DNA of 64,000 nucleotides, from IMG/VR virus record IMGVR_UViG_3300029305_003293, positions 54,161-118,160 of that record; one strand, written 5' to 3'. Below the pieces are notes generated by a model that saw nothing but the letters and a program-made list of their open reading frames with translations, made no database searches and was not told where the DNA came from. Each line of letters opens with the position of its first letter. Within the stretch, counting starts at the first letter, position 1. The translations under genes and the position numbers were made by a program. Origin of the DNA: a virus (taxonomy: Duplodnaviria; Heunggongvirae; Uroviricota; Caudoviricetes). Below, one piece after another: positions 45,216-63,071 of this stretch.

Positions 45216-46020
45216 ATTAATAATAATATCTAATATTGCAAAAAGAAGTAGAAGAACTGCTATTACCTGTGGCGTCAGTATATCCACCAACATAAGAAAT
45301 AGTTTTTTCTCCGATAATATCTGAAACATCAATTGTATATTCGGCCCATGAACTACTTGTAATTGATCTATAATTTAACATCATATCAGCATAAATTACA
45401 GGAGAAGATGCTGTTAAACCGTCTGATACATAAAAACCTATATTGCCATGATCAGCATTTTTTCTTGCACAAAATTTAATTTGCTAAACATATGTTAAGT
45501 CTCTAATATCATCCCATCTTAAATAAGAAGATTTTGCACCAGAACTTGATGTTGATGAACCAACAATTGTAAAACCTGCACTTCCATCTACCTAATTTGT
45601 TAAATAAGTTGGAGAAACATTTTTAAAACCAATTGCTAAATCTGCTCTTGTTACTAAATAATTATAATTTAATTTATATTCATTAATACCAATATATTTA
45701 GCATCTAAAGAATAATTAGTATTAACTCCATTAAAACTATAAATTATATTATAAGTCCCAATTGCTGGTAAATTAAATATCCAATTGCCGGAATTATTTA
45801 TTCCTTCATATAGAATATTGTCTTTAGAAACAGTGATAGTAGCATCTAAATTAGAAGTTATTATTTTTAATGTTGGATGTAATGTATCAAGATATGATTT
45901 ATCTGAAGAAGAAAATAATCCATTTATATCTGATGTTGCATTTGGAATTACAATATGTCCTATCATATTATTAACAGATAAAACAGGCGGTGGCGGGGTT
46001 GGAGTCAAAAATCCTATCAT
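45216..46020 (-). CDS. fibre/receptor-binding-like structural protein with 2 in-frame TAG codons
   Basis: RBS GAGAGGTGA plus an ATG at 46018-46020. The track ORF 45592-46020 continues in frame through TAG (...SPTYLTN-TAG-VDGSAGFTIVG...LTYV-TAG-QIKFCARK...). It ends at a TAA, followed by a hairpin and T-tract. Confidence 0.4.
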
Positions 46021-46640: not shown

Positions 46641-47483
46641 TTAATCTAATTTATCTGCTAATCTTGCAGTAGCAGAGCGTTCTGTTGTTGGGAGATTTAC
46701 ATATTGAAAAAGAGGATCTCCAGCAAGTCTATCAACCATTCTGCGCAATCCAGAATTGTCTTCAAATACTTTTTTATCAACTTGAGAATAATCTCCTTCT
46801 ATCCAAAGGTTAGAACCTTCACCAACACGACCAATCAAAAGTTGGACATGCTGTTTAGTTAGATTCTCTGCTTCAGATGAAATAATAATTGAATTTTTAA
46901 TATCTCTGCCGCGAATAAAACCTAAATGTTGAATTTCAATTTGATTGCGGAAAATCATATCATTTACTTGTTCCATACCACCAAGATGGTCGGCGAGTGG
47001 TCCAACATATGGTGCAAGTTTTTCTTCTGCAGTTCCAGGTAGAGCACCTAAAGATACAGTATCTTTAACTTCAATATTATTACGAACCCATACAAGTTTT
47101 TCAAACTTTCCATCTAAAATCTAACTCATTGCATGTGCTACCATTAAGAAAGTTTTACCACTACCAAAACAACCAGTTAATACTTTTACTGTTGACTATT
47201 CATTTTGAAGCATATCAAATGCAAGTCGTTGTTCAATATTTCTCGGTGTGACCTTACCAAGTAAATCATTCTTAATAGGTTTATAGGTAATATGTCTATA
47301 TTTTTCACCAGTCCAGCAATAAGCATCGGCTGGATGTCCATCAGTATCCAGCACGACAAGATATTCACCAATATTAGAAAAATATATATTCCAATCTGGA
47401 TGACTATAAAAATCACTTAAATTAGGATCGTCGGCAGAAATAATCTTATAACCAGTATATCGTTCCATAATCATTCTCCTCAA
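46641..47483 (-). CDS. phoH: PhoH-like ATPase with 2 in-frame TAG codons (47196-47198 and 47121-47123)
   Basis: Track ORFs 47196-47483 and 46641-46976 join in one frame. Walker A GCFGSGKTFLMVA lies between the TAGs. The C-terminal GDYSQVD...SGL motifs are typical of PhoH. Confidence 0.65.
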
Positions 47484-48097
47484 GGTAATAAATCTGCGAT
47501 AGTATCAACAATGGCATCATATACACCGTGCTCGAGACCCTCTTGCGCTGTAATATACCAATCGCTAACAATATTTTCGGCGACTTCTTCTTCCGTATAT
47601 GAAGTTCGTTCACATACAAAGTGTGTTAATCTTTCAATTTCAGCTTGATATGCCAATACTGAAGGAAGAATTTCCGCATATGTACCAGAAAATGCGCCGC
47701 TGCCTTGATGGAATAACAATTTAGAACGTGGTAAAGTGAATCGTTTATGGCAAGAGAGTAAAATATACGCCGCGGAACTATAAGCATTACCCATATTATA
47801 ACCATATACAGGAGTCTTGCTTAAAGTGATTACATCAATTAAACTATTATTAACACTTAAATCTCCACCAGGGGAAAAGATAAATAGTTTAATTGGTTTG
47901 CGCTCTTCTGGCGGCAAGTGCTTATCCTCTTGATTCCATTGAAGAATATATTTTGTGATATATAAAGTATCTTCTCCAACTTCATCATCTAGCCAAATAA
48001 TACGGTTCTCTAAATCAGAATAATACTAAACTAAAGCGGGGTCGGGAGTTGTAAATTTTCTACTGATTTAGGAAGAGATACCAAAGTTACGTCCATT
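47480..48097 (-). CDS. ClpP-like serine protease with one in-frame TAG and an apparent -1 frame discontinuity near 48050
   Basis: FSPGGDLSVNNSLIDVI...VYGYNMGNAYSSAAYIL plus an upstream in-frame YYSDLENRIIWLDDEVGED. The ATG with RBS AAGGAGG at 48095-48097 is in the -1 frame across the heptamer A_AAT_TTA. Confidence 0.55.
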
Positions 48098-48109
48098 GGG
48101 TTTTCCTCC

Positions 48110-49054
48110 TTAACATAAGAAAGGTAAATATCCTTCCTTGATTTTTTTTATATATTCAATAACTGAATATTTTAAGATACCAGTTTGAATATCTAATTTA
48201 CAATATTCTTCGATAGGGCAGTCCAATAAATGTGAAAAAAGATTCCAAAATATTGGTAAAGCTCGCCACATATCATATAATTTACGAAGATCAGTTTCTT
48301 GATTTATGTAAATATAATATTTCATAAACCATTCTCGGACTAAATGTATAATTTGTTCATCGGTGAAACTTGGATCTTCTTTCATTTTCTAATAAGTATA
48401 TTCAAAATTTTTGAATTGTTGCCGCATATTATCATATTGAAAAGCATCATTATTTTTGTGATTATAACCATTTGGATTATAATTGTAAACACATATAATA
48501 TTATCAATATTTTGAATCTATGGGTAATAAGCATTACACCAAAAATTAAACACTAAATCTTCACTTGCTGAAATGGAACTAAAATGTATATTATGTTTAT
48601 TTAAAAAATCAAGCTTATATAATGTAGCGTGCGTCCAAACATCTACATTATTTGTAATTTCAATATCTTCTGGAGTTTTATAACGTAACATCAAGCCTTT
48701 TATGATATCAGCTTCACTATATATTGCATGTTCGTATAATACCTATAAACTATTATACCCAAATAGAACATCGTCGGCATCAAGATAATAAATATAATCC
48801 ATATTATCTTGAATAGCTGCTTGTAATCCAATGTTGCGATTAATAGCATGGCCCTAATTCGTATTATTAATAATAACTTGAATATTAATATGTGTTTTAA
48901 AGATATTAAATATATCTGAATAATCTTGATTATCGTCGATAATACAATAAAGTCGACATTGATTAACAATAGACTATATAGCAATAGATGAAAAACATTG
49001 AATCAAATAATCTCGATTATTATAAATTGTTGTTATAATTGCAATATTTTTCAT
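48110..49054 (-). CDS. family-2 glycosyltransferase (GT-A fold) with 5 in-frame TAG codons
   Basis: Read-through translation MKNIAIITTIYNNRDYLIQCFSSI...IIDDNQDYS...YYLDADD (DxD) joins the track ORF 48110-48385. RBS GAGGT precedes the ATG. Confidence 0.5.
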
Positions 49055-49109
49055 TATATACCTCAAATAAAAAAATGGGGAGAATAAAATATTTTATTCT
49101 CCCTTGTAA

Positions 49110-49989
49110 TTATTGTAATTCTTCATAAGCTTCTAATAAAAGTAAAGATCTGGCCTAATCACGGTATTCTGGTTTAATTAAATAATATACTAATGATTCA
49201 ATATAATTAATATTATTGTAATCTCGTCCTGCAATTTTAAAATGAGTGATTCCAAATTGTTGATTTAATTCCAATACTTGCTCATGAGTTAAACAAGATT
49301 TTAATTTATTTAAGCAGTCATAAAAAGTAAGAAAATCACGAGTTTCTGGTTTATAACATTGCAAAGTAATATTTCTATGTTGCTCTTGATTTAAAATATA
49401 TTGACTCTCAATTTTATAATGCAATTTACGATATGGGCATTCATCCGAGCATGCTTCAGACAACATTATCTCTAGATTTTCTGGATATAATAACTATCCT
49501 AATAAATGTGGTTTCATATTAAATCCATAGTCTAAAACAAGCATATCATTTTTACTTTTCTAATTAATTTCATTAATATCATGTAAACATAAAGAAGTAC
49601 TCCAAATAAAATTATATTTAGGAAAACGCTCATGTAAAAATTCTTTTAATTTTGGATCAGTGATAATAATAGAATTTCCATCATGCTCACAAGCCGCAGT
49701 CCATTGTAAATTTTTGAAATCATAATATGCTTCTTGCGGCAATTCACAATTTGTATAAGTATGTCGTAGATTTACTCCTAAATCATAATAATTATCACGT
49801 AAATCATATATGTCTGTAGTTTGTGCATCACAGTATTTATTTGGTTTAATAATTCTGCAACCACCCCAAATACTACCCGGTAAGCAACCATATACAGAAT
49901 CAACAATAGTGTTTTCATACATCCATTCTGGATGTGTTTTCTACAATGTCAAAAATGCCATATTTACATGATAATGACTATAATAACCC
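49110..49989 (-). CDS. Cys-rich hypothetical protein with 4 in-frame TAG codons
   Basis: Continuous frame joining the track ORFs 49560-49922 and 49155-49466 through TAGs at 49560 and 49155, with a further TAG in the N-terminal extension MLKFSIAGYYSHYHVNMAFLTL. Confidence 0.4.
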
Positions 49990-49995
49990 GCGATT

Positions 49996-50285
49996 GAAAA
50001 TTTTAACATTTTTTTTTACTCACTTATTGTATAAATTAAATTAATAATAGTATTATGTTTATTTTTATCATAGGTATATAAAATTTTACTAATATATCCA
50101 TGATATTCTTGCTACATCAATTGATTTTGAGAAACAATATTTAATGTATTTGTACCTAAAATTTTATTTAATACTTGTTGGTCTATATCATTATGTACTA
50201 ATTCAATATATGTCTCTTGTGGTTCAAAAAATATAGACATCTTTTCCGCACAAAAGTTAATATTATTAATTGAACAATTATACAT
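49996..50285 (-). CDS. hypothetical protein with one in-frame TAG
   Basis: MYNCSINNINFCAEK...; the ATG overlaps the upstream TAA (taaatg). Confidence 0.3.
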
Positions 50286-50624
50286 TTAAATATTTACTCC
50301 AAAATTATAATTAATATGGAATTTATTTACTTCCGGTTTATAATTAATATTAACATGAACAATACGCGCTGGAGCTGCGGTTTGATACACTGTGCGAGGT
50401 GCTTCAGAACCATCTTCTCCAGAATATTGTACAATTAGATTAGTAAAAGATTCTTGTGCCAAATTACGTAAGGCAGTAAATTCAGGCATTTCACCTATAT
50501 ATTCACAATTAATCCATATTGGATTTACTTCATCGCCTGGTTGAAACATAATATTAAAATTAACAAGATTTAAATGAATACCAGCAGGATTTGATTCTGT
50601 TGGTAAAATTAATGTATAAGACAT
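50286..50624 (-). CDS. hypothetical protein
   Basis: RBS GAGGAGG lies 8 nt upstream of ATG-MSYTLILPTESNPAG... Confidence 0.35.
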   Translation of the reverse strand: MSYTLILPTESNPAGIHLNLVNFNIMFQPGDEVNPIWINCEYIGEMPEFTALRNLAQESFTNLIVQYSGEDGSEAPRTVYQTAAPARIVHVNINYKPEVNKFHINYNFGVNI

Positions 50625-50628
50625 AAGT

Positions 50629-50832
50629 TTATTCCTCCTCAATATTACACAAATACTTACACTTTAAACGAAAAAATCTTCGTATTTCATAATAATCATT
50701 TTCAAAAATCAATGTTTTATTAATTTTTAATTTTTTACTTAAATGATTATTATCATAGAATATTTGAATTGTTTCAACATTACTATAATCATAGTTATTA
50801 TCAATTTCATTATTTGAATAAATTTCAAACAT
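50629..50832 (-). CDS. hypothetical protein
   Basis: 67-aa Asn/Tyr-rich ORF. Confidence 0.3.
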   Translation of the reverse strand: MFEIYSNNEIDNNYDYSNVETIQIFYDNNHLSKKLKINKTLIFENDYYEIRRFFRLKCKYLCNIEEE

Positions 50833-50936
50833 AATTGTTATAGTTGATAATTTTCCTTGTTCATCATAAGAATGTGCTTCTTCAAAAAAATTAATATTAT
50901 GATTAGTAGTAATATTATTCTATAATAATTGTGCAA

Positions 50937-51431
50937 TTAACATGATGACTCATCCTTTAATAAGGAAGTTAAAAATCGATGTGATAACTTATATGGAGTA
51001 GCACTATTATTAATAACTCCCTGCTGCTGAATAATTAAACTTTCACATTGCAAAAGTAAAGTAGATAAACTATTTTTCATTAAAACTAATTTAGATAAAT
51101 TGGATATAAGTTCTAAATATTGTTCATCATTAAACATTAAGCTATAGTTTTGTACTAATACAATAATAGCTTCATAAATAGAAAAGGCTTCCTGATCTAC
51201 TTCTTCTAATATTAATGCCGGCAATAATAGCAATCCATGTCCAAGGATTTTCTAATCTTCTTCATTTAAAGTAAATTCAAAAGTCTCATCATCAAGTTTT
51301 TGTTCTACCATTCTACAAATTTCTTTAAGTACTGGCATAAAACCTTGACAAAAAATTCTCATATTATTCGCAAGAATATAAGGATGAGTATCTAAATAAA
51401 CAATCCATTCTTTTACACTTTCAAATTCCAT
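50937..51431 (-). CDS. hypothetical protein with one in-frame TAG
   Basis: MEFESVKEWIVYLDTHPY...NEED-TAG-KILGHGLLLLPALILEEVDQ... joins the track ORF 50937-51233. Confidence 0.35.
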
Positions 51432-51435
51432 ATAA

Positions 51436-52814
51436 TTATATATTCTCCTTTTTAATAATTTCTACACAATTCGCGACTGCTGATTGTGGAATTACGTCTA
51501 AAAAATTATCTAAAGCATTAAATTCTTTTAATTTTTTTAAGATTGTAATTATTTTTATAAATTCTAAATTACAAACAGAAGGAATTGGGGTAAAAAGTTC
51601 TTTAGTAACTTCATATTGACTTCCTAAACATCCATGAATACACATTGTATTTAATAAACAAGAATTACAAATATGCTATTTAGATGGTTTCATTCCTAAA
51701 ATTGTAATTCCTATTTCTGTATTATCTGCAATAATTTCTGTAATTTCATCATTTTGATCATCTATAATAAAATGTCCAAATTTTAATTCAGGATATAATA
51801 AACGATGACAGGGGTAAATTGTTAAATCAGAAATTTTTATCATTAAATTTTCTGCTAGTGTACAAGAAAAAGCATCGGAATCATAACGTTTAAAATTAGC
51901 TGATAATATATTAAATCCACCGCTATGTATATCAGATGAAGTTAATTTCCCAATCAAAGTATCTGGATCATGATTGGCTAACTCAAATAATTGATCCATT
52001 AAAAATGAAATAAAATCTTGAAATAATAATAATTTTTCTGTTGTCCAATTATAATTTCTAACTTCTAATAAATATAAATCGTCTAAAGAAAATCCATATT
52101 TAAGAAGCATTTCTTTAAACCATAAGAAATTATTTTTCCAAACATGAATGTTTTCAGGAGAAATCATAGGATGTGGTAAACTATTACTATCTACCATAAA
52201 CTAAAATAATTTTTCATAAAAATCTTGATTTAATACATAAGTATCACTTAATGGAATGTCTAAATCTGTTTTATATTTTCTAGTAATAGCATCTGCGTAA
52301 TATCCATCTGTACTAATACTAAAATATACATCAATATTTATTTTTTTAAATTCTTGCTATATTGCTATAATTTTATTATATAATAATTGATTTTGAATAA
52401 AAGTCCCATTTGTAGGAATGGTAATATAAGCTGGTCTATCTTGCGGCTCTTCTTGATAAAAAGTTAATATGGTCTCTAATAATTTAAAACCACTCTCTTG
52501 GGCAAATAATTCTCCAGAAAAAATTTCTAAAGAAGGATGAGCCTTCTATTTTCGCAGCCATGTTAATAATAAAATTGTATTTTTAATAGCTTTGTCACCA
52601 TCAAAAGGAAAATGCTATGTATAAATATTTTCATTATTATTTTTAATATAACAATATTCACATTTTAAATTACATTTTGGAGAAAATATAATTTCTAAAG
52701 AACTTTTTGGTTTATTACTCTACCAATCTTTAATAAAATATTCATTAATTACTGTTGAAATTAAATTATCATTTAATTCTTGATAATTACTATAATTAAC
52801 ACAATGTGTCTTCA
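51436..52814 (-). CDS. radical SAM enzyme with a C-terminal SPASM-like Cys-rich domain; 6 in-frame TAG codons
   Basis: CxxxCxxC (SPKCNLKCEYCY) near the N-terminus. The frame runs through the track ORFs 51676-52197 and 51436-51645. C-terminal HICNSCLLNTMCIHGCLGS. Confidence 0.55.
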
Positions 52815-54121
52815 TAATAAGCAATTAACTCCTCTAACGCTCCATTTGCTAATAATCTAATGGTTCCTAATGGAATTACACTCGCATTATTAGTCTAAGT
52901 TCCATGTTCACCAGCATAACAAGAAATGCCGCCTGTAAATACAAACAATAAACGTTTTAATATTGGATCTATATATTTTTTATCGATCTCACCTGCAGCA
53001 ACCATTGCTAATAATAGTGAATCTAATGAACTTTCACTTAACCTGTGATTCATTTGATAAGCAGCATTTGTATATTCAATACGGTCTAACTCTTTATCAG
53101 TAAAAGCAACCTAAGTATTAATCGCGAATTTTTTATCTTTTTCGCCACCCATCATATAACTATCATACATGCGATGACAAGTCATGATATTACCCTTGTG
53201 ATCAATAACTGCAGAGCCAATTCCTGCTCCGCATCTTAATTCTGAACCAGTATAATCTAATACGCCAACAGAATCTTTCCACGAAAAAATAAAACGCTGT
53301 ATAATAGGATGACTATATTCAGGTAATTGAGTAATATCAATTTCTCTTAATTTTCTAATAAGTTTACCATAGTTAATACCATCCTATTTAGTATAATTAT
53401 ATGGTGTTACTAATGTTGGCTCTTGAGTTAAATGTAAATTAATATAATTATTATTATTAATTAACTTACGACATTTTTGTTGTAATATATCAAAAAACTA
53501 TAGCCATTTAAATAAATTATCATTCTCTAATAATTTTGGCCATCTATCGGCAGGCACAGTAGGTTTAGTGTGTAAACTCAAATAAAACTAATCACCAGAT
53601 AATGTTTTATTATTTTCGCAAGTATCCAAAATAGTCTAATAAATAATATCAGTAATGCCCTTATAACCTCTTGAGACATCAGTAATTTCAGCAGGGCCAT
53701 CCAATGAAAACTAGATTGTTAAATGAATAGGACGATCATGTAATTCACTATATTTTTTAAAATATTCTATATATGGTTTAATTCCTTTTTCATAACCCAA
53801 TAAACCATTAGTAGAAAACATAAATGTTTCTAAAAAAGGAAAAAATTCTAATAATGGTTCACAAAAAGTCGCAATTAAATCAGCATTTAAAGTTGGTTCA
53901 CCAGACCATAATGACAAACCTTTTATATTATATTTAGCTTCATTAAATTTTGTAATAATATTATTTTGAAAAGAACCATCAACAATACTGTTTCTAATTT
54001 CTTCATTGTATAAATGCATATTTGAAGGATTTTTATGAATAAAACAATATTCACAAGCTAAATTGCAACTACCCACAAACACACATTCTAAATGATCAAT
54101 CGTTTTTACTAAACTACGCAT
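52795..54121 (-). CDS. radical SAM enzyme with a SPASM-like domain; multiple in-frame TAG codons and an apparent 1-nt frame discontinuity near 53635
   Basis: CNLACEYCF (CxxxCxxC) in the track ORF 53711-54121. The downstream frame carries CGAGIGSAVIDHKGNIMTCHRM and GGISCYAGEHG Cys clusters. The TAA at 52795 overlaps the start of the next radical SAM gene. Confidence 0.5.
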
Positions 54122-54142
54122 ATAATAATTATTTTTTCACAA

Positions 54143-54427
54143 TTATATACTATATAAACGTGAAATTAATTCTCCTCCACACTTTCTAAAACCGCTATAA
54201 CGAACGGAACCATTATTTCCTCCACAATGACTGCCATCGCCGCTACCTCGACTATTATGGCTTCGTACTGAACCATTGTGGCTTGTATAATTAGAGCTCC
54301 AATTAGAACCACAATGTGTATCTATCATATTTTGAGCATTAGTCTAAGCTGTAGTAAGCCATCTACCAACATCGCTCGCTTTGACTAAAGAACCTTGTGA
54401 ACCTGAAGTTAAATTCGTCCAAGCCAT
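54143..54427 (-). CDS. small Cys/Gly/Ser/Asn-rich protein, precursor-peptide-like (paralog 1), with an in-frame TAG
   Basis: RBS GGAGGAG plus ATG: MAWTNLTSGSQGSLVKASDVGRWLTTA-TAG-TNAQNMIDTHCGSNWSSNYTSHNGSVRSHNSRGSGDGSHCGGNNGSVRYSGFRKCGGELISRLYSI. Confidence 0.4.
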
Positions 54428-54738
54428 TGTACCATTTCTCCTCCACACTTATTATTAGTATAAACAGATCGATTGCTGCAATTGCTATTACCGCTACCTA
54501 CTCCATTATGACTACAATTACTGTGAGTGCCCGGTTTAGAAGTAGCATAAGATGAATTAGCAGCACTACCTATATTATTTAATTCTGTCAATAAAGCGGA
54601 TTTTAATAATGTACCTGCCGCTATAGAATTAGTCCAAGTATAAGTACTACCCGTTGTAATACGATAAGCAGATGCTATAGTATTTTTAATACTATTAACG
54701 TCAGCAGCTTGTACTTTCTAACCCTGTGTTAAAGCCAT
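54409..54738 (-). CDS. small Cys/Gly/Ser/Asn-rich protein, precursor-peptide-like (paralog 2), with an in-frame TAG at codon 7
   Basis: RBS AAGGTGGG plus an ATG at 54736-54738: MALTQG-TAG-KVQAADVNSIKNTIASAYRITTGSTYTWTNSIAAGTLLKSALLTELNNIGSAANSSYATSKPGTHSNCSHNGVGSGNSNCSNRSVYTNNKCGGEMVQWLGRI. Confidence 0.4.
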
Positions 54739-54847
54739 ATAAAATATCCCACCTTTATTTAAATTTTATATATAAAATATAAAATACCAGTCTATATTAT
54801 ATATAAAATTTAAACTAATATTTTAATATAATTTGCCCTTATTTAAC

Positions 54848-54890
54848 TCTTTAATTAAATTATATCATATTTTTTTTCTAAAGTCAAATG
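54848..54890 (-). promoter_or_regulatory. sigma70-type promoter upstream of the precursor-like/radical SAM gene cluster
   Basis: Minus strand: TTGACTTTAGAAAAAAAATATGATATAATTTAATTAAAG (TTGACT-N17-TATAAT). It lacks the ATATATGTAAGG extension of the other copies. Confidence 0.55.
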
Positions 54891-54987: not shown

Positions 54988-55025
54988 AAAAAAGGTGGGT
55001 TCATCACATTCATGATGAACCCACC
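54988..55025 (-). terminator. rho-independent terminator at the downstream end of the tRNA array
   Basis: Minus strand: GGTGGGTTCATCA-TGAATG-TGATGAACCCACC (13-bp stem) followed by TTTTTT; just after tRNA-Val. Confidence 0.6.
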
Positions 55026-55065
55026 TTAAAGGCCAAGAGCTTCGTAAGTTTTCTGGGCACTGAAC

Positions 55066-55141
55066 TGGTGCGAAGTGACGGGCTCGAACCGCCGACCCTC
55101 TGCTTGTAAGGCAGATGCTCTCCCAGCTGAGCTAACCCCGC
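55066..55141 (-). tRNA. tRNA-Val (anticodon UAC)
   Basis: Cloverleaf with acceptor GCGGGGU/ACUUCGC (two G-U pairs), anticodon loop CUUACAA, T-loop GGTTCGAGCC, CCA encoded. Confidence 0.8.
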
Positions 55142-55479
55142 AAGTTGGGCTTCATTGAAGCCCGTCGAAAGGAAAGGAAGAAAGAAGTAAAGTGCTTTGC
55201 ATCAATAATTATTTCAAAAGAATGTTGTGATTTCAAGAGATACAATTCAAAATCTTTAATTATCTGTAGCAAAGCGTCATCACGATCTAATATTGTTAGA
55301 TCTCCAAACTATTACTTAATAATAGTATCATTGCTGTTAATCTCTTCAGTCAGATATTAGACAATCTCTTTAACTCTTACGAGGGGCCAAAGCATTTCTA
55401 TTACTGACCGCACATTTTTTTTCTTGTATTAATTCTTGCATTTTATAATTACATTACAAATTGCAGTTTAGGCCCAATG

Positions 55480-55567
55480 TGGCGGAAGCGGCAGGATTCG
55501 AACCTGCGGAGCTGTTACACTCTCTTGTTTTCTAGACAAGTGCCATAATCCACTCGGCCACGCTTCC
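55480..55567 (-). tRNA. tRNA-Ser-like, type II; anticodon loop CUAGAAA reads AGA in the canonical register
   Basis: GGAAGCG...CGCUUCC acceptor, discriminator G, long variable arm, T-loop GGTTCGAATCC, CCA encoded. A at position 34 is unusual, and the loop contains the triplet CUA. Confidence 0.6.
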
Positions 55568-55589
55568 ATAAACAAACAAGGCACGCATC

Positions 55590-55661
55590 GACCGGAAAGG
55601 AGACTCGAACTCCTGAGTTCCACCTTGAGGGTAGCGTTCTAACCATCTGAACTATTCTGGT
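55590..55661 (-). pseudogene. atypical tRNA-like element (irregular anticodon arm, no CCA)
   Basis: Acceptor ACCAGAA/UUCCGGU with an A-C mismatch, D-arm GUUC...GAAC and T-arm AGGAG-UUCGAGU-CUCCU. The anticodon arm has either a 5-nt loop or the loop CCUCAAG (UCA or CAA). Confidence 0.35.
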
Positions 55662-55687
55662 AGTTTTGCTGTTTATGCCTTTTGAAC

Positions 55688-55764
55688 TGGTCCGCCATCT
55701 AGGACTTGAACCCAGGACAAGCTGTATATAAGACAGCCGCTCTAACCAGCTGAACTAATGGCGG
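55688..55764 (-). tRNA. tRNA-Ile (anticodon UAU)
   Basis: Acceptor CCGCCAU/AUGGCGG, anticodon loop CUUAUAU, T-loop GGTTCAAGTCC, CCA encoded. Confidence 0.7.
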
Positions 55765-55770
55765 ATAAAA

Positions 55771-55846
55771 TGGAGCCGGTGACAGGACTTGAACCTGCAA
55801 CCTAGTGATTACAAATCACTTGCGCTGCCAATTGCGCCACACCGGC
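55771..55846 (-). tRNA. tRNA-Thr (anticodon UGU)
   Basis: Acceptor GCCGGUG/CACCGGC, anticodon stem AGUGA/UCACU with loop UUUGUAA, CCA encoded. Confidence 0.7.
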
Positions 55847-56105
55847 ACAAAGATAACCGAAACGCACCATTCTTCAAACTACACCGCTTACTGTATGACC
55901 ACGAGCCAAGCGCCTTTCTCCCCTTGAGGTCTGGGGCCCACACCCGCCTCGTTATCCAAACAATACGCCTCGTATTATCTTGCCTAATTTTTAAATAACT
56001 CCATATGTTTTGCGGCTTACATATTTTGTTATCAAAAATTAGAAAATTCTATCACAATAAATAAATATCACAATATCATCCAGTTATCAATCCGCTCTTG
56101 GATGC

Positions 56106-56181
56106 TGGCTGGGGTGGTAGGGCTCGAACCTACATATGCACGGGTCAAAGCCGTGTGCCTTCACCATTTGGCGACACCCCA
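56106..56181 (-). tRNA. tRNA-Gln (anticodon UUG)
   Basis: Resembles E. coli tRNA-Gln: UGGGGUG...CACCCCA G CCA, loop CUUUGAC. Confidence 0.8.
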
Positions 56182-56194
56182 TTAGATGGTTGAA

Positions 56195-56443
56195 TTACTC
56201 AACCACGCGGAAACGATCAAACTCAAGAGGAAAATGTCCGTCATGAATAAGATTGATTAGATACATACCACCAGAAAAATCAGCTCGCGCATACAGCATA
56301 CCAAGCATAGAACCCGGATTCACTGCGTATTCGCCACGAAAATCTTCAAGTCGATAAGTATCTTCTGCTCGCGCGATTAGACTAATGAAATCAACAAGAT
56401 CTCGTTCAGTTTCAATCGCAATTCGCATTCGAGTATTAGGCAT
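56195..56443 (-). CDS. hypothetical protein embedded in the tRNA array
   Basis: 82-aa ORF lying between tRNA-Gln and tRNA-His. Confidence 0.3.
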   Translation of the reverse strand: MPNTRMRIAIETERDLVDFISLIARAEDTYRLEDFRGEYAVNPGSMLGMLYARADFSGGMYLINLIHDGHFPLEFDRFRVVE

Positions 56444-56470
56444 AACTCTAACTCCTTTTGATTAAATAAA

Positions 56471-56547
56471 TGGGGTGTGCGATGGGACTTGAACCCACAA
56501 ACCACAAGAGCCACAATCTTGCGCTCTACCATTGAGCTACGCACAAC
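56471..56547 (-). tRNA. tRNA-His (anticodon GUG) with an extra 5' G(-1)
   Basis: G-1 pairs with C73; loop UUGUGGC; T-loop GGTTCAAGTCC; CCA encoded. There is one U1-C72 mismatch. Confidence 0.7.
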
Positions 56548-56672
56548 ATATAAAGCTTCGGGAGCGAACTATTCCACATATTTTTGGACAATATGCTTTA
56601 TCAAATTATTGCCCGAAGCATGACACCAAAATACATATTGGGAGTTTTTTGACAAAGAGGCACCCAGCTCTG

Positions 56673-56749
56673 TGGCGACTCCGATGGGGTTCGAACCCAC
56701 GACCTCTAGCGTGACAGGCTAGCGCTCTAACCAGCTGAGCTACGGAGCC
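56673..56749 (-). tRNA. tRNA-Asp (anticodon GUC)
   Basis: GGCUCCG...CGGAGUC G CCA; loop CUGUCAC; T-loop GGTTCGAACCC. Confidence 0.8.
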
Positions 56750-57212
56750 ATATTAAGCCCTACAGTATAGGCTGGGCTGCCTCTTCTCGTACTGCTCAAA
56801 GGATTTTTTATCCATCATACTCTTTGCTCTACCAAATCAAAAAGTACTAAAGGAGACGATACTAATCAAGAAAGCAGTTACATCCGGCGTCGCTTCCTTA
56901 TCTCACACTCAGTCATCCTCGCTCGTCTCAACGAGGCTCTATGTCATCTCTCTTGATTAGATGTTAGTTTTTATTGGCTTGCGGTAATTACTAACAACCC
57001 ACATAGCACTCCACATTTAACTCTTTTCGCCAATCGAGGAAAATGCTTCATCATGCGGACTTATCTCAAGTATAAGTCTCATTGCGACCACTCGCGTCCC
57101 ACCAGTCTGTTGACCTTTTTGGTTATTACAAGTCTCACCTGCCAAAGCCTTGTCCGTCGCATATTTTATTGAAAAATCCGGAGTTTATTTACTCTCCCTA
57201 CGGCAAAGGAGA

Positions 57213-57289
57213 TGGTCGGGCATCTTGGACTCGAACCAAGGACTTCCACCTTATCAGAGTGGCGCTCTAACCAACTGAACTAATGCCCG
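57213..57289 (-). tRNA. tRNA-Ile (anticodon GAU)
   Basis: CGGGCAU...AUGCCCG A CCA; loop CUGAUAA; T-loop GGTTCGAGTCC. Confidence 0.8.
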
Positions 57290-57291
57290 AT

Positions 57292-57411
57292 ATACAAGAC
57301 AGCTAACTAGTTTTGCTCGACCAATTGAGCTATTCACACCACACGGCATAAAATCGGACTCGAACCGATAACACAAACTTAGAGTTTGAATTTGCTGTAA
57401 CTGTCTTAAAA
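57292..57411 (-). pseudogene. tRNA-like fragments (D-arm-like TAGCTCAATTGGTCGAGCA and T-arm-like ATCGGTTCGAGTCCGAT) with no complete cloverleaf
   Basis: Segments with tRNA arm signatures that do not assemble into a tRNA; no matching acceptor halves were found. Confidence 0.3.
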
Positions 57412-57458
57412 TGGTGCCGAGAGTGGGACTTGAACCCACACATCTTTTGGATACTTGA
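57412..57458 (-). other. 3' half of a split type-II Leu-like tRNA (UCAAG stem strand, variable arm, T-arm, UCUCGGC acceptor strand, A, CCA)
   Basis: UCAAG-UAUCCAAAAGAUG-UGUGGG-UUCAAGU-CCCAC-UCUCGGC-A-CCA. It pairs with the 5' half at 58094-58125, located 660 nt away. Confidence 0.5.
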
Positions 57459-57459
57459 T

Positions 57460-57942
57460 TTAACGATTATTTTTACCACCATAACTATCTGTTATAGCAT
57501 GGCAATTTGGGCAACGATATTCTAAATTACTTAATTCATTATTTGTTCTATCTCCATCCTTATAATGTAATTGTAGAGTAAGAATGTGTCCCATCCAATT
57601 TCCATCACATCCACATCCAGCACATTGATAAGGAATTAATTTATCTTTATCAATATATCGTCTTAATGTTATATTGGAGATATCTTTACCTTTTACGAAT
57701 AAAGTTTCAATAGAATATTTTTCTTCAAAATCTGGTTTATCTCGCCAATGCTATCCAGTAAAATGCGAAATATCAATTTCATATTCAGCAATTTTTTTTC
57801 TAAGTGTAGCTTGACTTCCGCCACCTTGTGCTCTTCCAGCTTTTCGCAATACTTCAGCCAGCGAATAACTCTCTGCACATAGTTCTTGCAACCAGTCTTT
57901 TGAATATTTTCGTAATGACATAATTATCACACTTCCTTTCAT
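57460..57942 (-). CDS. HNH homing-endonuclease-like protein with an in-frame TAG (57751-57753)
   Basis: RBS AAAGGAAG plus an ATG at 57942. The track ORF 57751-57942 continues through TAG into CAGCGCDGNWMGHILTLQLHYKDGDRTNNELSNLEYRCPNCH (HNH/zinc motif). Confidence 0.55.
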
Positions 57943-57994
57943 TGTATTATGAAAGTTTTATTAGTCTGCCTAATTACGTCTGCCCATTTTTTTT

Positions 57995-58081
57995 TGGTGG
58001 GAGATATGGGACTTGAACCCATACGAGAATTAACTCAAAGGTTTTTGAGACCTTCGTGTATGCCAATTCCACCAATCTCCC
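57995..58081 (-). tRNA. tRNA-Leu (anticodon CAA), type II
   Basis: GGGAGAU...AUCUCCC A CCA; anticodon stem AAGGU/ACCUU with loop CUCAAAA; long variable arm; T-loop GGTTCAAGTCC. Confidence 0.75.
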
Positions 58082-58093
58082 ATACTCGTCTTT

Positions 58094-58125
58094 TCAAGCG
58101 CGTCTGCCAATTCCACCATCCCGGC
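58094..58125 (-). other. 5' half of a split Leu-like tRNA (acceptor GCCGGGA, D-arm GUGG-AAUUGGCAGA-CGC, anticodon stem strand CUUGA)
   Basis: Complementary to the 3' half at 57412-57458: 7/7 acceptor pairs including one G-U, and anticodon stem CUUGA/UCAAG. Confidence 0.5.
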
Positions 58126-58190
58126 AAACTGTATGGGTTTTAAGAGTCCATACCCTCTTTGTAGCTCACTTTCGTGAGTGCCACCTTGCC

Positions 58191-58232
58191 TGGTCGGAGA
58201 GACAGGATTCGAACCTGCGGCCTCTTGATCCA
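58191..58232 (-). other. isolated tRNA 3' fragment (T-arm GCAGG-UUCGAAU-CCUGU, acceptor strand CUCUCCG, A, CCA)
   Basis: No matching 5' half (CGGAGAG) was found nearby. The fragment abuts the 3' end of the CDS 58247-58684. Confidence 0.4.
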
Positions 58233-58246
58233 GTTAATAATGCTCC

Positions 58247-58684
58247 TTATTTTAATACATTTTCTAATTCATAATCAGCTGCAAAGTTAATTCCTTTTAG
58301 CTGACCAGATTTAGGAGGAACAAACCTCAAAGTCTTGGTTATCGAACATTCTTGAACGGGAATGACATAACATTTGCCTTCAAAAAATGTTGCAAGATAA
58401 TCAATTTGGGTTTCATCATAGCGCTGTTGTTTCACACCTTTGCTGTTAATGTGGGCTGAACGAGCATAAAACATAAAAGCTGTTTTTGTTTCATCAGTCC
58501 AACTGGAACTTTTTACTTGAACTCGAATGATTTTTCCATCTTTATCAGCTAAAAAATCATATCGAGCGCAATCTCCATAAGGGATACTTACTTGAAATCC
58601 CGCAGCAATAAATGAACGAATACAATCAAGCTCTGTGGTCATTCCCTTGATTAACGTACTATCCACAATGAGTTTACTAGCCAA
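58247..58684 (-). CDS. putative PD-(D/E)xK-type nuclease
   Basis: YDFLADKDGKIIRVQVK resembles a D...(D/E)xK catalytic core. The gene abuts a tRNA 3' fragment. Confidence 0.3.
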   Translation of the reverse strand: MASKLIVDSTLIKGMTTELDCIRSFIAAGFQVSIPYGDCARYDFLADKDGKIIRVQVKSSSWTDETKTAFMFYARSAHINSKGVKQQRYDETQIDYLATFFEGKCYVIPVQECSITKTLRFVPPKSGQLKGINFAADYELENVLK

Positions 58685-58777
58685 ATCAAGCTGTCTACCA
58701 AACTGACATACTCCCCGATGATCAAGACGATTTTATCTGTACTACCATACATCTTTTTATTGCTGGTATCGTCTTTA

Positions 58778-58824
58778 TCAACCTTACATATTTATTATAT
58801 CATAATTTTTTTAATTTTTCAACT
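58778..58824 (-). promoter_or_regulatory. sigma70-type promoter, repeated family
   Basis: Minus strand: TTGAAAAATTAAAAAAATTATGATATAATAAATATGTAAGGT. Confidence 0.6.
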
Positions 58825-59236
58825 CTTCCATAATCTTAAGCTCGATAGGTTTCTTCTCTGTCTGAGAATTAGAACATATCATAAGAGCTTCCGCGATTGC
58901 CAGATAATCTCTGTCAACGAGTTGCATATCCGCAATCATATCTTCAATAATTACTCGATCTTCCATATGCTCAGCATATTTTTTCTTGAACTCAGTAACA
59001 TAATCATTTGCCTCATCATAAGTCTTATAATAAGAATGATGATCGTAGAGCATTCGATCAGTTCTTTCTTTACAATGAATACAAACAAAAGGTTCAAAAA
59101 TCTTGAATACAAGATATCGAGTATTTGTATTATATGATGCTTCATAATACCAAGGAAAGTCTTTATACTTATGATTACAGACCAGCTTCTGCGGTTTTGA
59201 TTCTTCGACTTTTGCCTTTCGCTTAAACCAGCCCAT
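58811..59236 (-). CDS. hypothetical protein
   Basis: 141-aa ORF downstream of the promoter at 58778-58824. Confidence 0.3.
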   Translation of the reverse strand: MGWFKRKAKVEESKPQKLVCNHKYKDFPWYYEASYNTNTRYLVFKIFEPFVCIHCKERTDRMLYDHHSYYKTYDEANDYVTEFKKKYAEHMEDRVIIEDMIADMQLVDRDYLAIAEALMICSNSQTEKKPIELKIMEELKN

Positions 59237-59263
59237 AATTACTCTCCTTTTAATTTAACTTAA

Positions 59264-59340
59264 TGGAGTGTCCTGCCGGATTTGAACCAGCGCATCACGG
59301 GGTTGCAACCCGCCGCCTTACCAGACTTGGCTAAGGACAC
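59264..59340 (-). tRNA. tRNA-Cys (anticodon GCA)
   Basis: GUGUCCU...AGGACAC U CCA; loop UUGCAAC; T-loop GGTTCAAATCC. Confidence 0.8.
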
Positions 59341-59429
59341 ATAAAACAAGACTTCCTGATTCACAGTAGTTTTCTTCATCAAAACTTAAATATCATATGT
59401 GTATATTTGCTGAAAGAAACCTTTAAAAA

Positions 59430-59504
59430 TGGTGGATCTGAGGGGAATCGAACCCCTAATTCCTGCTTGCAAGGCAGGTGTGTTACCATTAGCACTACAA
59501 ACCC
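59430..59504 (-). tRNA. tRNA-Ala (anticodon UGC)
   Basis: G3-U70 identity pair in GGGUUUG/CAGAUCC; loop CUUGCAA; T-loop GGGTTCGATTCCC; CCA encoded. Confidence 0.8.
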
Positions 59505-59728
59505 GCATTAGTGCCTGCGGATACAGGCAAAGAAAATTACCGAAAACAGTCGCCTAGGACTTTCACCCTATCTCCAGCCTCTTTCATCTGGTGTTCTCAT
59601 TCGTGCTTTCGCACCTTTTAAACTATCCGCACCTATCACGATTACCCAATCAACATTTCTGTCCTTGTGCCGGGCCAGCTGGCGTGCGTCTATTAAGCGT
59701 AGCTATTATTCCAAGCCTATCGGTAATA

Positions 59729-59804
59729 TGGCCTCCCACAAAGGATTCGAACCCTCATTGCTTGATCCGTAGTCAAGTGTCCTGTCCAATTAGACGAATG
59801 GGAG
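59729..59804 (-). tRNA. tRNA-Arg (anticodon ACG)
   Basis: CUCCCAU...GUGGGAG G CCA; loop CUACGGA; T-loop GGTTCGAATCC. Confidence 0.75.
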
Positions 59805-59807
59805 AGA

Positions 59808-59884
59808 TGGGTGCCAAGGCTGGATTCGAACCAGCGATCTCCAACTTATGAGGATGGCGAGATGACCTGCTTCTCTACTCGGCA
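59808..59884 (-). tRNA. tRNA-Met/Ile2-like (anticodon CAU)
   Basis: UGCCGAG...CUUGGCA C CCA; loop CUCAUAA; T-arm GCUGG-UUCGAAU-CCAGC. Confidence 0.7.
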
Positions 59885-60170
59885 GCGCGTGCGTTCCTTT
59901 TGAGCGAACTACACATACTCTCTTTAATAACTCGTACTCTCGCCAAGTTTTAGCGGTTGCTAAATCTTTAACTCATTATAATTATCATCCTATTATAAGT
60001 TGCCACTACTCTTTAATTGATTAATTATAATTTATATGAGTGGACTTTTGTATATTAATTAGAGCGGACGATAATTCGCAACACGCATACCCCGGACTTG
60101 AGACCCGGCGGTGGTGGGTTATACAAGGGTCGGTATTTCCGTTAGGCTGGCCCCGACCGCAGGCTCTGTA

Positions 60171-60488
60171 TCAAGATTGAGCATAACCATAATGGGTAAG
60201 AAGTTGTTCCATATTCTGCCTACCGACCGGATTCATAGTATGCAGATGGAAGCCGAGTAAGGGGTAATTAGATGAAACAATGAACTTACAAATATCATAA
60301 CCGGTCTTTTCTTCACCCAGATCATGGTCTAAGTCGATGTATACTTCGCATACATCTCGGCATTGCTCGAGAAACTCAATGGTTGCCTGATAGGACCTTG
60401 TAGTGTGAGTGCCAGCGCCCTCACAGAAAGGAATGTTCTCAAAGGGATTCTTTCGTTCATCGTCTACCCAGAGGAAAACTTTTGTCAT
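60171..60488 (-). CDS. hypothetical protein
   Basis: 105-aa ORF downstream of the promoter at 60505-60553. Confidence 0.3.
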   Translation of the reverse strand: MTKVFLWVDDERKNPFENIPFCEGAGTHTTRSYQATIEFLEQCRDVCEVYIDLDHDLGEEKTGYDICKFIVSSNYPLLGFHLHTMNPVGRQNMEQLLTHYGYAQS

Positions 60489-60504
60489 TTGCTTGAACCC
60501 CTTT

Positions 60505-60553
60505 CCTTTACCTTACATATATATTATATAATAATTTTTATAATTTTTCAAAT
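60505..60553 (-). promoter_or_regulatory. sigma70-type promoter, repeated family
   Basis: Minus strand: TTGAAAAATTATAAAAATTATTATATAATATATATGTAAGGT. Confidence 0.6.
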
Positions 60554-60566
60554 CAGCGATTTGAAT

Positions 60567-60644
60567 TGGTGGGTTCGGTTGGTGTCGAGCCAACACTCTG
60601 CGGTTTTTCAGACCGCCGCATAAGACCGCTTGTGCTACGAACCC
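60567..60644 (-). tRNA. tRNA-Phe (anticodon GAA), atypical T-loop CUCGACA
   Basis: GGGUUCG...CGAACCC A CCA; anticodon stem GCGGU/ACCGC with loop CUGAAAA. Confidence 0.6.
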
Positions 60645-60650
60645 ATAAAT

Positions 60651-60724
60651 TGGAGCAAGTAGCGGGAATCGAACCCGCGACCTCAGCATGGCAAGCTGAT
60701 GTTTTACCTCTAAACTATACCTGC
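60651..60724 (-). tRNA. tRNA-Gly (anticodon GCC)
   Basis: GCAGGUA...UACUUGC U CCA; loop UUGCCAU; T-loop GGGTTCGATTCCC. Confidence 0.8.
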
Positions 60725-60725
60725 A

Positions 60726-61004
60726 TCACTTATCTTCATCATCATACCTACTACCATCTTCGCAATATTTACACTCCACAGTAGAAGGATCGACATCGCC
60801 ATATAATTCAATATACCAATCACGATAATGTTTCCAAATATAACCGGGGTCACTGATACAATCAGCATATCCAAATTTACAGCACATTGGATAATCAATG
60901 AAGTAGTCTTTAATATAAACATTTTTAGGATTATGCTTACAGACACCACATACTTCATCACTTTTGTTTGGATTAAAACAATTTTCACAATAGTTATATT
61001 TCAT
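60726..61004 (-). CDS. Cys-rich small protein
   Basis: MKYNYCENCFNPNKSDEVCGVCKHNP...MCCKFGYADC. The longer N-terminal part of the track ORF overlaps tRNA-Gly and is rejected. Confidence 0.3.
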   Translation of the reverse strand: MKYNYCENCFNPNKSDEVCGVCKHNPKNVYIKDYFIDYPMCCKFGYADCISDPGYIWKHYRDWYIELYGDVDPSTVECKYCEDGSRYDDEDK

Positions 61005-61078
61005 ATCATAAATCCGGCTATCACGGGGCGCCCTATGGTGGACACGCTTGAATTTCACATACCAATTAAACTTTAAAA

Positions 61079-61152
61079 TGGAGCACCATATGGGACTCGA
61101 ACCCACTACATCTGCTTGGAAGGCAGAGATGTTACCATTACACCAATGGTGC
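61079..61152 (-). tRNA. tRNA-Gly (anticodon UCC)
   Basis: GCACCAU...AUGGUGC U CCA; stem UCUGC/GCAGA with loop CUUCCAA; T-loop GGGTTCGAGTCCC. Confidence 0.8.
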
Positions 61153-61161
61153 ATCCGGGAA

Positions 61162-61866
61162 TTAACCCCACTGTTCTGCCATTGCTTTCGCAATTCCAGG
61201 AAAAGTTTTACTGCGAGCTTTCGCAGTTCGTGGATCACTCCATCTGATCGTCTTACCATTTTCATCATAAGCCGTATCAATAGAAGCATTTACTGAACGA
61301 CCATTTCCTGCAAGAGGGCCGCAATCAACAATTTCAGTTAGAACAAGAGGTTGAACTCCCTTCTCCCAAAGACAAGTTTTCTTGCGTGCTCTTTCGCCAA
61401 ACTCATATGGTTGAATCATTTGCGCTGGCTTTTGCGGCAGACCATATCGTTCTGCCAAATCAGGAAAATGTTCTTTCAGATAAGAACCGCTGATAATACA
61501 TACGGGATTTTCTACAACAACTTTATCGCAATCTGCCTCAAGAAATTGACAGAAAAATTCTATCGCTTCTCTTTGGCGTCCATCCGCACGCTTTGCTGCG
61601 AAATGTCTTGCGCCACTCACAGCTAAATGAGTGCAAGGTGGATGCGCAATAATCATATCCCAACGATCTTCGATCTTATGCTCTTGACCGTCCATTGTAA
61701 TAAAAGTGGTTTTACCATTTAATAGGGGTAGGACATCACCAAGAATGTGCCATTCTGGATGACCGCCACTACATTCCTAAATATCACAGGAGAAAGCTCG
61801 ATGTCCTTTTGCGCGAAACGCCTTACAGACTTCTTGACTTTCTTCACAAGCAATTAAAACATTCAT
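61162..61866 (-). CDS. DNA cytosine-5-methyltransferase-like protein with an in-frame TAG (61777-61779)
   Basis: RBS AGGAG plus ATG: MNVLIACEESQ...FSCDI-TAG-ECSGGHPEW... joined to the track ORF carrying AHPPCTHLAVSG (PC motif) and VVVENPV (ENV-like). Confidence 0.4.
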
Positions 61867-61943
61867 AAACAAGACTCCTTACGATAAAACTAATATGCAG
61901 CAGTTATTTGTAAAAAAGATTGCTGAAAGAGTCTTTATCCCTG

Positions 61944-62036: not shown

Positions 62037-62039
62037 TCG

Positions 62040-62322: not shown

Positions 62323-62331
62323 CTCCTTAAA

Positions 62332-63070: not shown

Positions 63071-63071
63071 T

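Follow-up and report, generated by a model that had tools for sequence, protein, structure and literature searches.

The window analysed here, the whole 64-kb stretch of DNA presented above (W), resembles part of a large phage in which nearly all genes lie on the minus strand. It carries a minus-strand operon that begins with the genes of two small proteins, smallA and smallB, followed by those of two enzymes of the radical S-adenosylmethionine (SAM) type, R1 and R2, and of a protein of 164 amino acids (aa), p164 (Table 1). Our preferred reading, to which we assign a probability of roughly 0.55, is that this is a late-expressed phage operon that matures its two small proteins post-translationally, with R1 and R2 acting on smallA and smallB. 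The initial annotation, made from the sequence without database searches, had proposed the same core idea, which gained support from the recurrence of this gene association in other phages and from the SPASM-type matches of the enzymes.

An R2 sequence profile retrieved 76 loci from IMG/VR, about 43 of them clear members, and the counts below are given over 42 loci; compared loci carry labels of the form L002. The R1-R2 pair recurs in about 45 phage contigs. R1 adjoins R2 in 35 of the 42 IMG/VR loci, and in 31 a protein that either has the N-terminal domain of smallA (hereafter N-domain) or is of low complexity lies within four genes. A search for homologues of the small proteins near radical SAM genes, as first suggested, found them in the window, L002, L004 and L106-L109, where the order smallA-smallB-R1-R2-p164, three small open reading frames (ORFs) and a 300-aa Cys-motif protein is kept; N-domain proteins accompany the pair in most of the 42 distant loci. 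No homologue without radical SAM neighbours was seen where the contig allowed a check.

The proteins beside the pair, nearly always one or two per locus, are 99-474 aa long and have tandem-repeat cores rich in Ser, Asn, Thr, Tyr, His, Gly, Asp and Cys. Examples are 'CSITCSNKCTAQACGRT' (L022), 'NSNTCSNGSHSNTC' (L043), 'YDGSYNGTYRASNNA' (L037), 'NARNSYGDS' (L031) and 'TNSTYSDTC' (L048); the only thing that nearly all cores share is Tyr, His, Trp or Phe spaced within Ser/Asn/Gly-rich repeats. An iterated search seeded with residues 1-64 of smallA recovered 53 N-domain proteins from these loci and also reached distant loci with 'CNCNYCTC' or 'CPCNCNFC' repeat cores. Of 48 distinct proteins, 32 have a Cys where the N-domain meets the core. 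In the reverse direction, from substrate to enzyme, the N-domain profile retrieved fragment P0123, whose gene is directly upstream of radical SAM genes of 455 and 469 aa, with a 169-aa partner. From this recurrent, lineage-spanning linkage of N-domain, hypervariable cores and the R1-R2 pair, which is our main argument, we infer that the small proteins are the substrates. As database copies of substrates, the N-domain profile recovered only TAG-truncated fragments; gene calling under the standard code cuts the substrates short at TAG, and the family therefore probably went unnoticed.

In L106, the closest relative, a 200-aa protein (1799-2401) has true CXXX repeats (TIGR04114, 22.3 bits against a cut-off of 20; tagged PF27846) and a smallA-like N-terminal motif that was read by eye, L106 lying outside the profile search. 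Genes for a YcaO cyclodehydratase (PF02624, E = 6e-36) stand beside Cys/Ser/Thr-rich cores in L022, L024, L035, L038 and L043, and in L022, L024 and L043 they lie directly upstream of a Cys/Ser/Thr/His-rich repeat substrate. This arrangement suggests that azoline formation is combined with radical SAM modification at the YcaO loci. No YcaO gene, the mark of TOMM azoline systems, was found among the operon genes scanned, a scan that did not extend to the rest of the window. Judged from the sequences compared, the family is phage-restricted and the window is a minimal member of it.

Several further observations concern individual relatives. The CXXX-repeat protein of L106 lies near another radical SAM gene (L106 1-409), and the window has neither. 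L002 has, after its PhoH gene, a second radical SAM gene (18665-20035) preceded by a 185-aa Ser/Asn/Thr-rich protein, again absent from the window. Substrates with CNCNY-type repeats in L049 (13820-14557), L050 (12563-13252), L072 (14051-14728) and L077 (13236-13805) end in 'YSDxxLKxxIxx(L/M)', a sequence reminiscent of how the intramolecular chaperone (peptidase S74) region begins in the tail fibres and spikes of phages. An apparent fusion of substrate and enzyme in L056 proved to be an artefact of reading through a TAG.

By their motifs, R1 and R2 are radical SAM enzymes, a class defined by a CX3CX2C motif that binds the SAM-cleaving [4Fe-4S] cluster and by a partial TIM-barrel core. The motif reads CNLACEYC in R1 and CNLKCEYC in R2 and is invariant among the homologues of each; outside this CNLxCEYC segment the two enzymes are unrelated. 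R1 scores 29.2 bits on Fer4_12 (cut-off 22), and both fall under the gathering threshold of PF04055. The initial annotation had credited both enzymes with SPASM-type Cys clusters as well, which holds for R2 only. SPASM (TIGR04085) is defined as a C-terminal CX9-15GX4C...CX2CX5CX3C...C arrangement whose seven Cys serve two auxiliary clusters. In R2 the corresponding residues (C318, C336, C383, C386, C392, C396 and C415) are invariant among 40 and 75 homologues, with the canonical spacing, and R2 has the full seven-Cys domain, with a TIGR04085 score (23.5 bits) slightly under the cut-off of 27. R1 does not show the SPASM feature; its conserved C-terminal Cys are C297, C315 and C401 only, and because there are just three it looks like a twitch-type or partial SPASM enzyme, likely with one auxiliary cluster. 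Of the hidden Markov model searches proposed at the outset, the one for a family 2 glycosyltransferase (GT2; PF00535) returned its match (see below), whereas those for SPASM in R2 and for PF04055 in both enzymes stayed under threshold.

Structural comparison placed R2 among enzymes that modify peptides or proteins. An AlphaFold2 model of P0002, an R2 homologue of 51% identity, had a confidence score (predicted local distance difference test, pLDDT) of 93.5, and its top folds in the PDB were CteB, anSMEcpe, ChlB and SuiB (template modelling score about 0.55-0.66, identity 12-17%), all of them SPASM enzymes acting on peptides or proteins. CteB was also the best PDB match of the R2 sequence profile. 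Among NCBIfam models, both enzymes matched PapB best (R2, 60.9 bits; R1, 47.7 bits, 1.2e-12; cut-off 340), followed by weaker matches to the CXXX-repeat, YhhB, CefB, nif11 and HxsB models, all far under their cut-offs; neither enzyme reached the curated cut-off for PapB, the CXXX-repeat maturases or the anaerobic sulfatase-maturating enzyme (anSME). Neither R1 nor R2 has a RiPP recognition element (RRE; RiPP, ribosomally synthesised and post-translationally modified peptide) or N-terminal room for one: R1 begins only 18 residues ahead of the cluster motif, and the homologue model places a single helix before the first core strand of R2. The R2 family comprises about 140 database proteins, all metagenomic, many of them on contigs of 130-190 kb.

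The two adjacent small proteins described in the initial annotation, each with an in-frame TAG, are present as stated, and their paralogy is confined to the last ~36 aa (47% identity, E = 0.001), the rest being unshared. Both end in KCGGE followed by a short hydrophobic tail of 8-9 aa. Orthologue alignment divides smallA into an N-terminal domain of ~64 residues (1-64), with two helices of the 'G..I.A.D.N.I(K/R)..I' type, and a disordered core in which Ser, Asn, Gly and Cys abound and which closes with NNKCGGE and the tail; smallB has a single 'GSLVKASDVGxWL' motif and an invariant 'HC'. In both proteins the N-terminal part is leader-like. An AlphaFold2 model of smallA shows helices at 11-29 and 45-65 with the remainder disordered, and at a pLDDT of 47 it is unusable. 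Ser, Asn, Gly, His and Tyr are abundant in the cores of both proteins. The Cys-rich core to which attention was first drawn is real in this phage and is not a family feature. KCGG is kept in almost all 14 family representatives and in both paralogues, usually as NNKCGGE in smallA, and a Cys at the border of the N-terminal domain (the 'HC' of smallB) is conserved with it; the other Cys are not, and the smallA orthologue of L002 has one Cys in all. We rejected KCGGE as a family-wide marker, as it is confined to the window's clade and its Glu is not invariant, and 'C[PS]SH' as a universal motif, as it is only partly conserved.

Relatives of the small proteins are few. Neither smallA nor smallB matches any family in Pfam, NCBIfam or PHROGs. 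Among 5.8 billion proteins the sole match to smallA was an identical copy on one other contig, and among 1.84 billion proteins there were only 14 representative clusters, all of 58-130 aa; orthologues at 32-50% identity occur in at least seven loci and in these clusters. IMG/VR yielded no close relatives of R2 or smallA when searched for them, the DNA of the region matched no cultured phage, and a metagenome scan with the smallB alignment gave no confirmed match.

All genes of the operon need TAG read-through, and translating every one of them would, from the codons present, require the suppressor tRNA(CTA) encoded in the neighbouring tRNA array, of which L002 has a syntenic copy. In-frame TAGs cluster in few genes, chiefly between 45.2 and 54.8 kb, where TGA and TAA still appear to end genes despite a tRNA(TCA) in the array; the ClpP-like gene, for example, stops at TGA. 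The TAG of smallB aligns with true Gln codons of L106 and L107, which suggests that TAG is read as Gln. The R2 alignment columns were uninformative as to the amino acid inserted, and the tRNA(CTA) itself has an unusually long extra arm.

Judged by these matches, the nearest known kind of system is that of the CXXX-repeat radical SAM targets, of which the window would be a divergent phage-borne variant. The CXXX-repeat system is computationally defined, with targets TIGR04114 and TIGR04117, maturases TIGR04115 and TIGR04119, and the Pfam family PF27846; to our knowledge its chemistry is uncharacterised. In both systems a SPASM-type maturase adjoins a protein whose C-terminal core is repetitive, and TIGR04115 is among the top matches of R1. 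The two also differ: CXXX repeats are absent from smallA and smallB, which match no target model; the maturase model (cut-off 350) gives 33.9 bits for R1 and 14 for R2; the family of the window is phage-borne and has a pair of mutually unrelated radical SAM enzymes together with p164; and the shared N-terminal domain is absent from any published model.

The next comparison is with the ranthipeptide/SCIFF maturases PapB and CteB, which join Cys through a thioether to a non-alpha or alpha carbon. The match of R2 to the PapB model spans nearly its entire length, CteB is the best PDB match by sequence and by fold (16% identity), R2 has the seven-Cys SPASM domain, and a conserved substrate Cys could donate the thiol. 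Unlike PapB substrates, smallA and smallB lack CX3D repeats, their lone CGGE being a CX2E whose Glu is not invariant; unlike SCIFF peptides they lack the SCIFF pattern, R1 and R2 have no RRE, and relatives include Cys-free cores. The model for sactipeptide/SCIFF maturases, TIGR03974 (cut-off 425), gave 26 and 18 bits. The proposed parallel to sactipeptide and ranthipeptide maturation was therefore not borne out: no family cut-off was reached, no RRE is present and the Cys-richness is unconserved.

Triceptide and Gly-rich-repeat systems (YhhB, XyeB, GrrM/OscB, ChlB) gave weak matches, with YhhB at 2e-8 for R2 and ChlB among the top folds of the R2 homologue model, but these matches lie under the cut-offs and smallA and smallB have no conserved aromatic-x-x motif. 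An assignment to anSME (TIGR03942), which the initial annotation had listed as a competing identity, is disfavoured by scores of 25-26 bits where the cut-off is 349, and by the conserved 'HC(S/P/G)', which is not CxPxR; no sulfatase was found among the neighbouring genes scanned against Pfam. Unlike the SunS-type GT2 of glycocin systems, the GT2 of the window is generic, lies five genes from R2 and has counterparts near the enzyme pair in 6 of the 42 loci. With GT2 and the ClpP-like gene peripheral, the suggested likeness to S-glycosyl peptide systems found no specific evidence in its favour.

We envisage the following course of maturation. The suppressor tRNA would permit late translation of the operon, and the N-terminal domain would then serve to dock the two small proteins on the enzyme pair, p164 perhaps assisting. 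R1 and R2 would generate 5'-deoxyadenosyl radicals, abstract hydrogen from residues of the disordered core and cross-link that core intramolecularly. By analogy with PapB and CteB, the likeliest link would be a thioether from a conserved Cys (in 'HC' or 'KCGG') to a side-chain or backbone carbon; because some relatives are Cys-free and the similarity to YhhB and ChlB is weak but present, an aromatic C-C link to Tyr, His or Trp may be the alternative in Cys-poor relatives. p164 would act as an accessory, as in this clade would the Cys-motif protein and GT2, and the latter two may add further modifications. Elsewhere in the family the same N-domain precedes hypervariable repeat cores that reach ~400 aa, true CXXX repeats included, and a YcaO enzyme is sometimes encoded nearby.

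What becomes of the product is suggested by where relatives keep the module. L010 and L018 have it behind the tape measure gene (PHROG E = 8e-52) and the gene of a 480-aa protein, with more large proteins of the tail region encoded after it; in L006 its neighbours are a fibre-like 'LPLTGG' protein of 619 aa on one side and an endolysin on the other. The upstream neighbours in L019, L020, L023, L029, L044, L045 and L046 have motifs that we take to be those of short fibres. Because relatives encode the module within tail and fibre blocks, the matured protein would most likely remain largely intact and have an extracellular role, attached to the virion or accompanying it, instead of serving as a leader-cleaved bacteriocin. 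Substrates of up to 474 aa in relatives likewise argue for modification at the level of the protein, and their presence in tail modules means that a secreted RiPP is not the sole reading and perhaps not the best. Long substrates, the lack of a conserved protease or transporter, a fixed N-terminus with a hypervariable C-terminus, and late TAG-dependent expression would fit a virion protein at least as well as a RiPP.

A more far-reaching version of maturation by R1 and R2, which we hold only tentatively, is that large phages build parts of their virions by RiPP-type chemistry, the radical SAM pair covalently cross-linking or modifying hypervariable low-complexity repeat proteins that share an N-terminal docking domain and are encoded with the tail and fibre genes. 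YcaO, a U32-like Cys-motif enzyme or glycosyltransferases would assist in some lineages, the resulting hardened and rapidly evolving appendages would serve adsorption or survival in the environment, and the window would represent a minimal two-protein version. Such a role would also account for the abundance of radical SAM genes in phages such as CP220.

Several points weigh against maturation of smallA and smallB by R1 and R2. The substrate assignment draws on gene neighbourhood as its sole source, the co-occurrence count is biased because most loci were gathered by way of the enzyme, and P0123 is the single informative check from the substrate side. No curated family cut-off was reached by R1 or R2, and the chemistry is therefore not transferable by homology. 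Some putative substrates are Cys-free, such as a 134-aa protein in L017, which makes one shared chemistry unlikely. The structural model of smallA is of low confidence, as noted. Finally, the operon in the window stands outside any recognisable structural module, between the tRNA array on one side and GT2, ClpP and PhoH on the other.

Among the alternatives, the best placed is a classical RiPP bacteriocin, which we consider unlikely. Here the N-domain would serve as a leader, and the core, cross-linked by R1 and R2 in sacti- or ranthipeptide fashion and glycosylated by GT2, would be cleaved and released at lysis as an antibacterial or signalling peptide. In this reading the ClpP-like or a host protease would cut off the leader or the C-terminal tail, for instance after the GG of KCGG, and the invariance of KCGG could mark a processing site. 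The substrates in this clade are small (94-130 aa), two paralogous precursors adjoin each other, a constant N-terminal part is joined to a variable core, R1 and R2 resemble PapB or CteB, and GT2 and ClpP share the late transcription block, all points in its favour. It is harder to reconcile with homologous substrates of 286-474 aa, with the embedding of the module in tail-gene blocks of several lineages, or with enzymes that have no RRE and pass no curated sactipeptide, ranthipeptide or glycocin model. Nor is any protease or transporter conserved beside the R1-R2 pair across the compared loci, ClpP accompanying the pair solely in the window, L002 and L025, and GT2 being as infrequent as stated above.

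Somewhat less probable again is that smallA and smallB are unmodified late proteins, associated with fibres or serving as decoration, while R1 and R2 act on a metabolite, a cofactor, a nucleic acid or tRNA, or some other protein. The link is after all one of co-localisation alone, and the operon adjoins an array of 23 tRNA genes, but the pair also keeps company with N-domain proteins where there is no tRNA array, as in L010. Phages of the CP220 type do carry many radical SAM genes without a known role; set against this, the enzymes that R2 matches best, by profile as by fold, all act on peptides or proteins, the models for anSME, MoaA and NrdG score far under their cut-offs, and YcaO and true CXXX-repeat targets occur within the same family. 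No substrate is recognisable near the pair in L019, L021, L023, L027, L029, L044 or L045, and in L021 one ORF splits the pair; in L019 and L044, however, a 230-aa protein upstream is rich in Cys, His, Asn and Gly and falls merely under the thresholds. That smallA and smallB are chance open frames in a low-complexity region upstream of R1 is scarcely credible, for although the ORFs are short, biased in composition and without a Pfam, NCBIfam or PHROGs family, orthologues with the N-domain and KCGG recur in the loci and clusters counted above, a Shine-Dalgarno sequence and a promoter precede smallA, and the smallB TAG falls on orthologue Gln codons.

Among cultured phages, only Campylobacter Firehammervirus (CP220, CPt10) has detectable relatives, with 22% identity to R2; their radical SAM protein is 41% identical to the enzyme of the CNCNY-repeat locus L072. 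CP220 and CPt10 have 11-12 radical SAM genes whose role has been unexplained since 2010 (PMC2853527). They represent a distant branch and differ from the window in using the standard genetic code, and in CP220 (L110) no N-domain substrate was found beside gp023 or in the first 50 kb. CP220 does share with the window's relatives a Cys-repeat protein, gp032 (L110 24206-24577), of 123 aa with Cys at every third residue (NCKNCINCSNC...), two genes past the portal gene. In GTDB, sampled at one genome per species, there were 23 R2-family matches (L083-L105), none in isolates and nearly all in metagenome-assembled genomes (MAGs) labelled as Candidate Phyla Radiation (CPR; Parcubacteria, Saccharibacteria), DPANN or other uncultured lineages. 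These are probably phage contigs mis-binned into small-genome MAGs. We found no published description of such a phage system in the literature.

If R1 and R2 do mature the small proteins, they would belong to a phage-restricted family of protein-modifying radical SAM enzymes with its own docking domain, p164 and diverse cores, and this family would be a source of new cross-linking chemistry. It would also offer a hypothesis for why Campylobacter phages, and large phages besides these, carry unexplained sets of radical SAM genes. Were the products part of the virion, tail or fibre proteins would be cross-linked by enzymes after translation, which would be new.

The genes downstream of R2 differ in how closely they follow the pair. 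p164 is all-helical, with 'NWN' and 'PPxxELSxHYL' motifs and no Pfam, NCBIfam or PHROG match; a homologue lies near the enzyme pair in 17 of the 42 loci, and in 23 loci of all examined it comes after R2. The three small ORFs that follow have equal sizes and order in L002 and L106-L109, are syntenic in close relatives only and match no family. The 299-aa protein has an invariant C187/C191/H197/C218 motif and is present in 18 loci, near the pair in 12 of the 42; its identification as a U32 peptidase or hydroxylase was rejected as too weak (U32 E = 0.003, under the cut-off, in 4 of 14 members). GT2 (PF00535, E = 2.6e-13; best NCBIfam matches, polysaccharide glycosyltransferases) and the ClpP-like protein (PF00574, E = 4.7e-23, with the Ser/His/Asp positions legible in its sequence) were both correctly recognised at first sight and lie five to six genes downstream; their distribution marks GT2 as a peripheral, clade-variable accessory gene and ClpP as likewise peripheral, and neither as a core component.

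Table 1. Features of the window (W) and YcaO genes of compared loci, with coordinates in the respective sequence
Feature	Sequence	Coordinates	Strand	Remarks
PhoH	W	46641-47474	-	277 aa
ClpP-like serine protease	W	47480-48067	-	~195 aa
GT2 glycosyltransferase	W	48110-49054	-	314 aa, 5 TAGs
Cys-motif protein	W	49110-50009	-	299 aa, 4 TAGs
Three small ORFs	W	50016-50943	-	104, 112 and 89 aa
p164	W	50937-51431	-	164 aa, 1 TAG
R2, radical SAM	W	51436-52815	-	459 aa, 6 TAGs
R1, radical SAM	W	52796-54121	-	441 aa, 7 TAGs
smallB	W	54143-54427	-	94 aa, TAG at codon 28
smallA	W	54409-54738	-	109 aa, TAG at codon 7
Sigma-70-like promoter (candidate)	W	54859-54887	-	TTGACT at 54887, 17-nt spacer, TG-TATAAT ending at 54859
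Terminator-like hairpin	W	54992-55027	-	16-bp stem with 7 GC pairs, then T-run; splits tRNA array from operon
tRNA array	W	55066-63949	-	23 genes, including anticodons CTA and TCA
tRNA(TCA)	W	55590-55661	-	
Suppressor tRNA(CTA)	W	61944-62036	-	93 nt, unusually long extra arm
YcaO	L022	5344-7263		within 8 genes of the pair
YcaO	L024	6055-7845		within 8 genes of the pair
YcaO	L043	5760-7565		within 8 genes of the pair
YcaO	L035	13557-15131		within 8 genes of the pair
YcaO	L038	14949-16766		within 8 genes of the pair

The signals upstream of the operon are plausible ones. The ATG of smallA is preceded at 9 nucleotides by a GGTGG Shine-Dalgarno sequence. The promoter that the initial annotation had called dedicated is the top site within 51-55.3 kb, with 11 of 12 consensus matches and an extended -10 TG; promoter-like sites overall number 30, against 31.5 expected by chance, and as the total does not exceed chance we regard this promoter as plausible but unproven.

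Other features of the region were noted in passing. GC content falls to 25-27% at 48-54 kb, compared with 34-42% in other parts of the window, and the low-GC stretch (48000-54000) overlaps R1, R2 and the accessory genes. The tRNA array contains an HNH-endonuclease-like ORF ('...YRCPNCHAITDSYGGKNNR'; 57460-57942, minus strand), and in the relative L004 GIY-YIG and NUMOD fragments lie between the tRNAs. A 267-aa late protein (45217-46020, minus strand) has two TAGs, a Pro-rich start and ATSDINGLFSSSDKSYLD, which we take to be a motif typical of phage fibre proteins, and it may be the structural gene nearest to the operon. Remote from the other TAG-rich genes, a 324-aa ORF (20528-21502, minus strand) with an N-terminal membrane anchor and six in-frame TAGs may be a late gene or one involved in lysis, with its expression under control of the suppressor tRNA.

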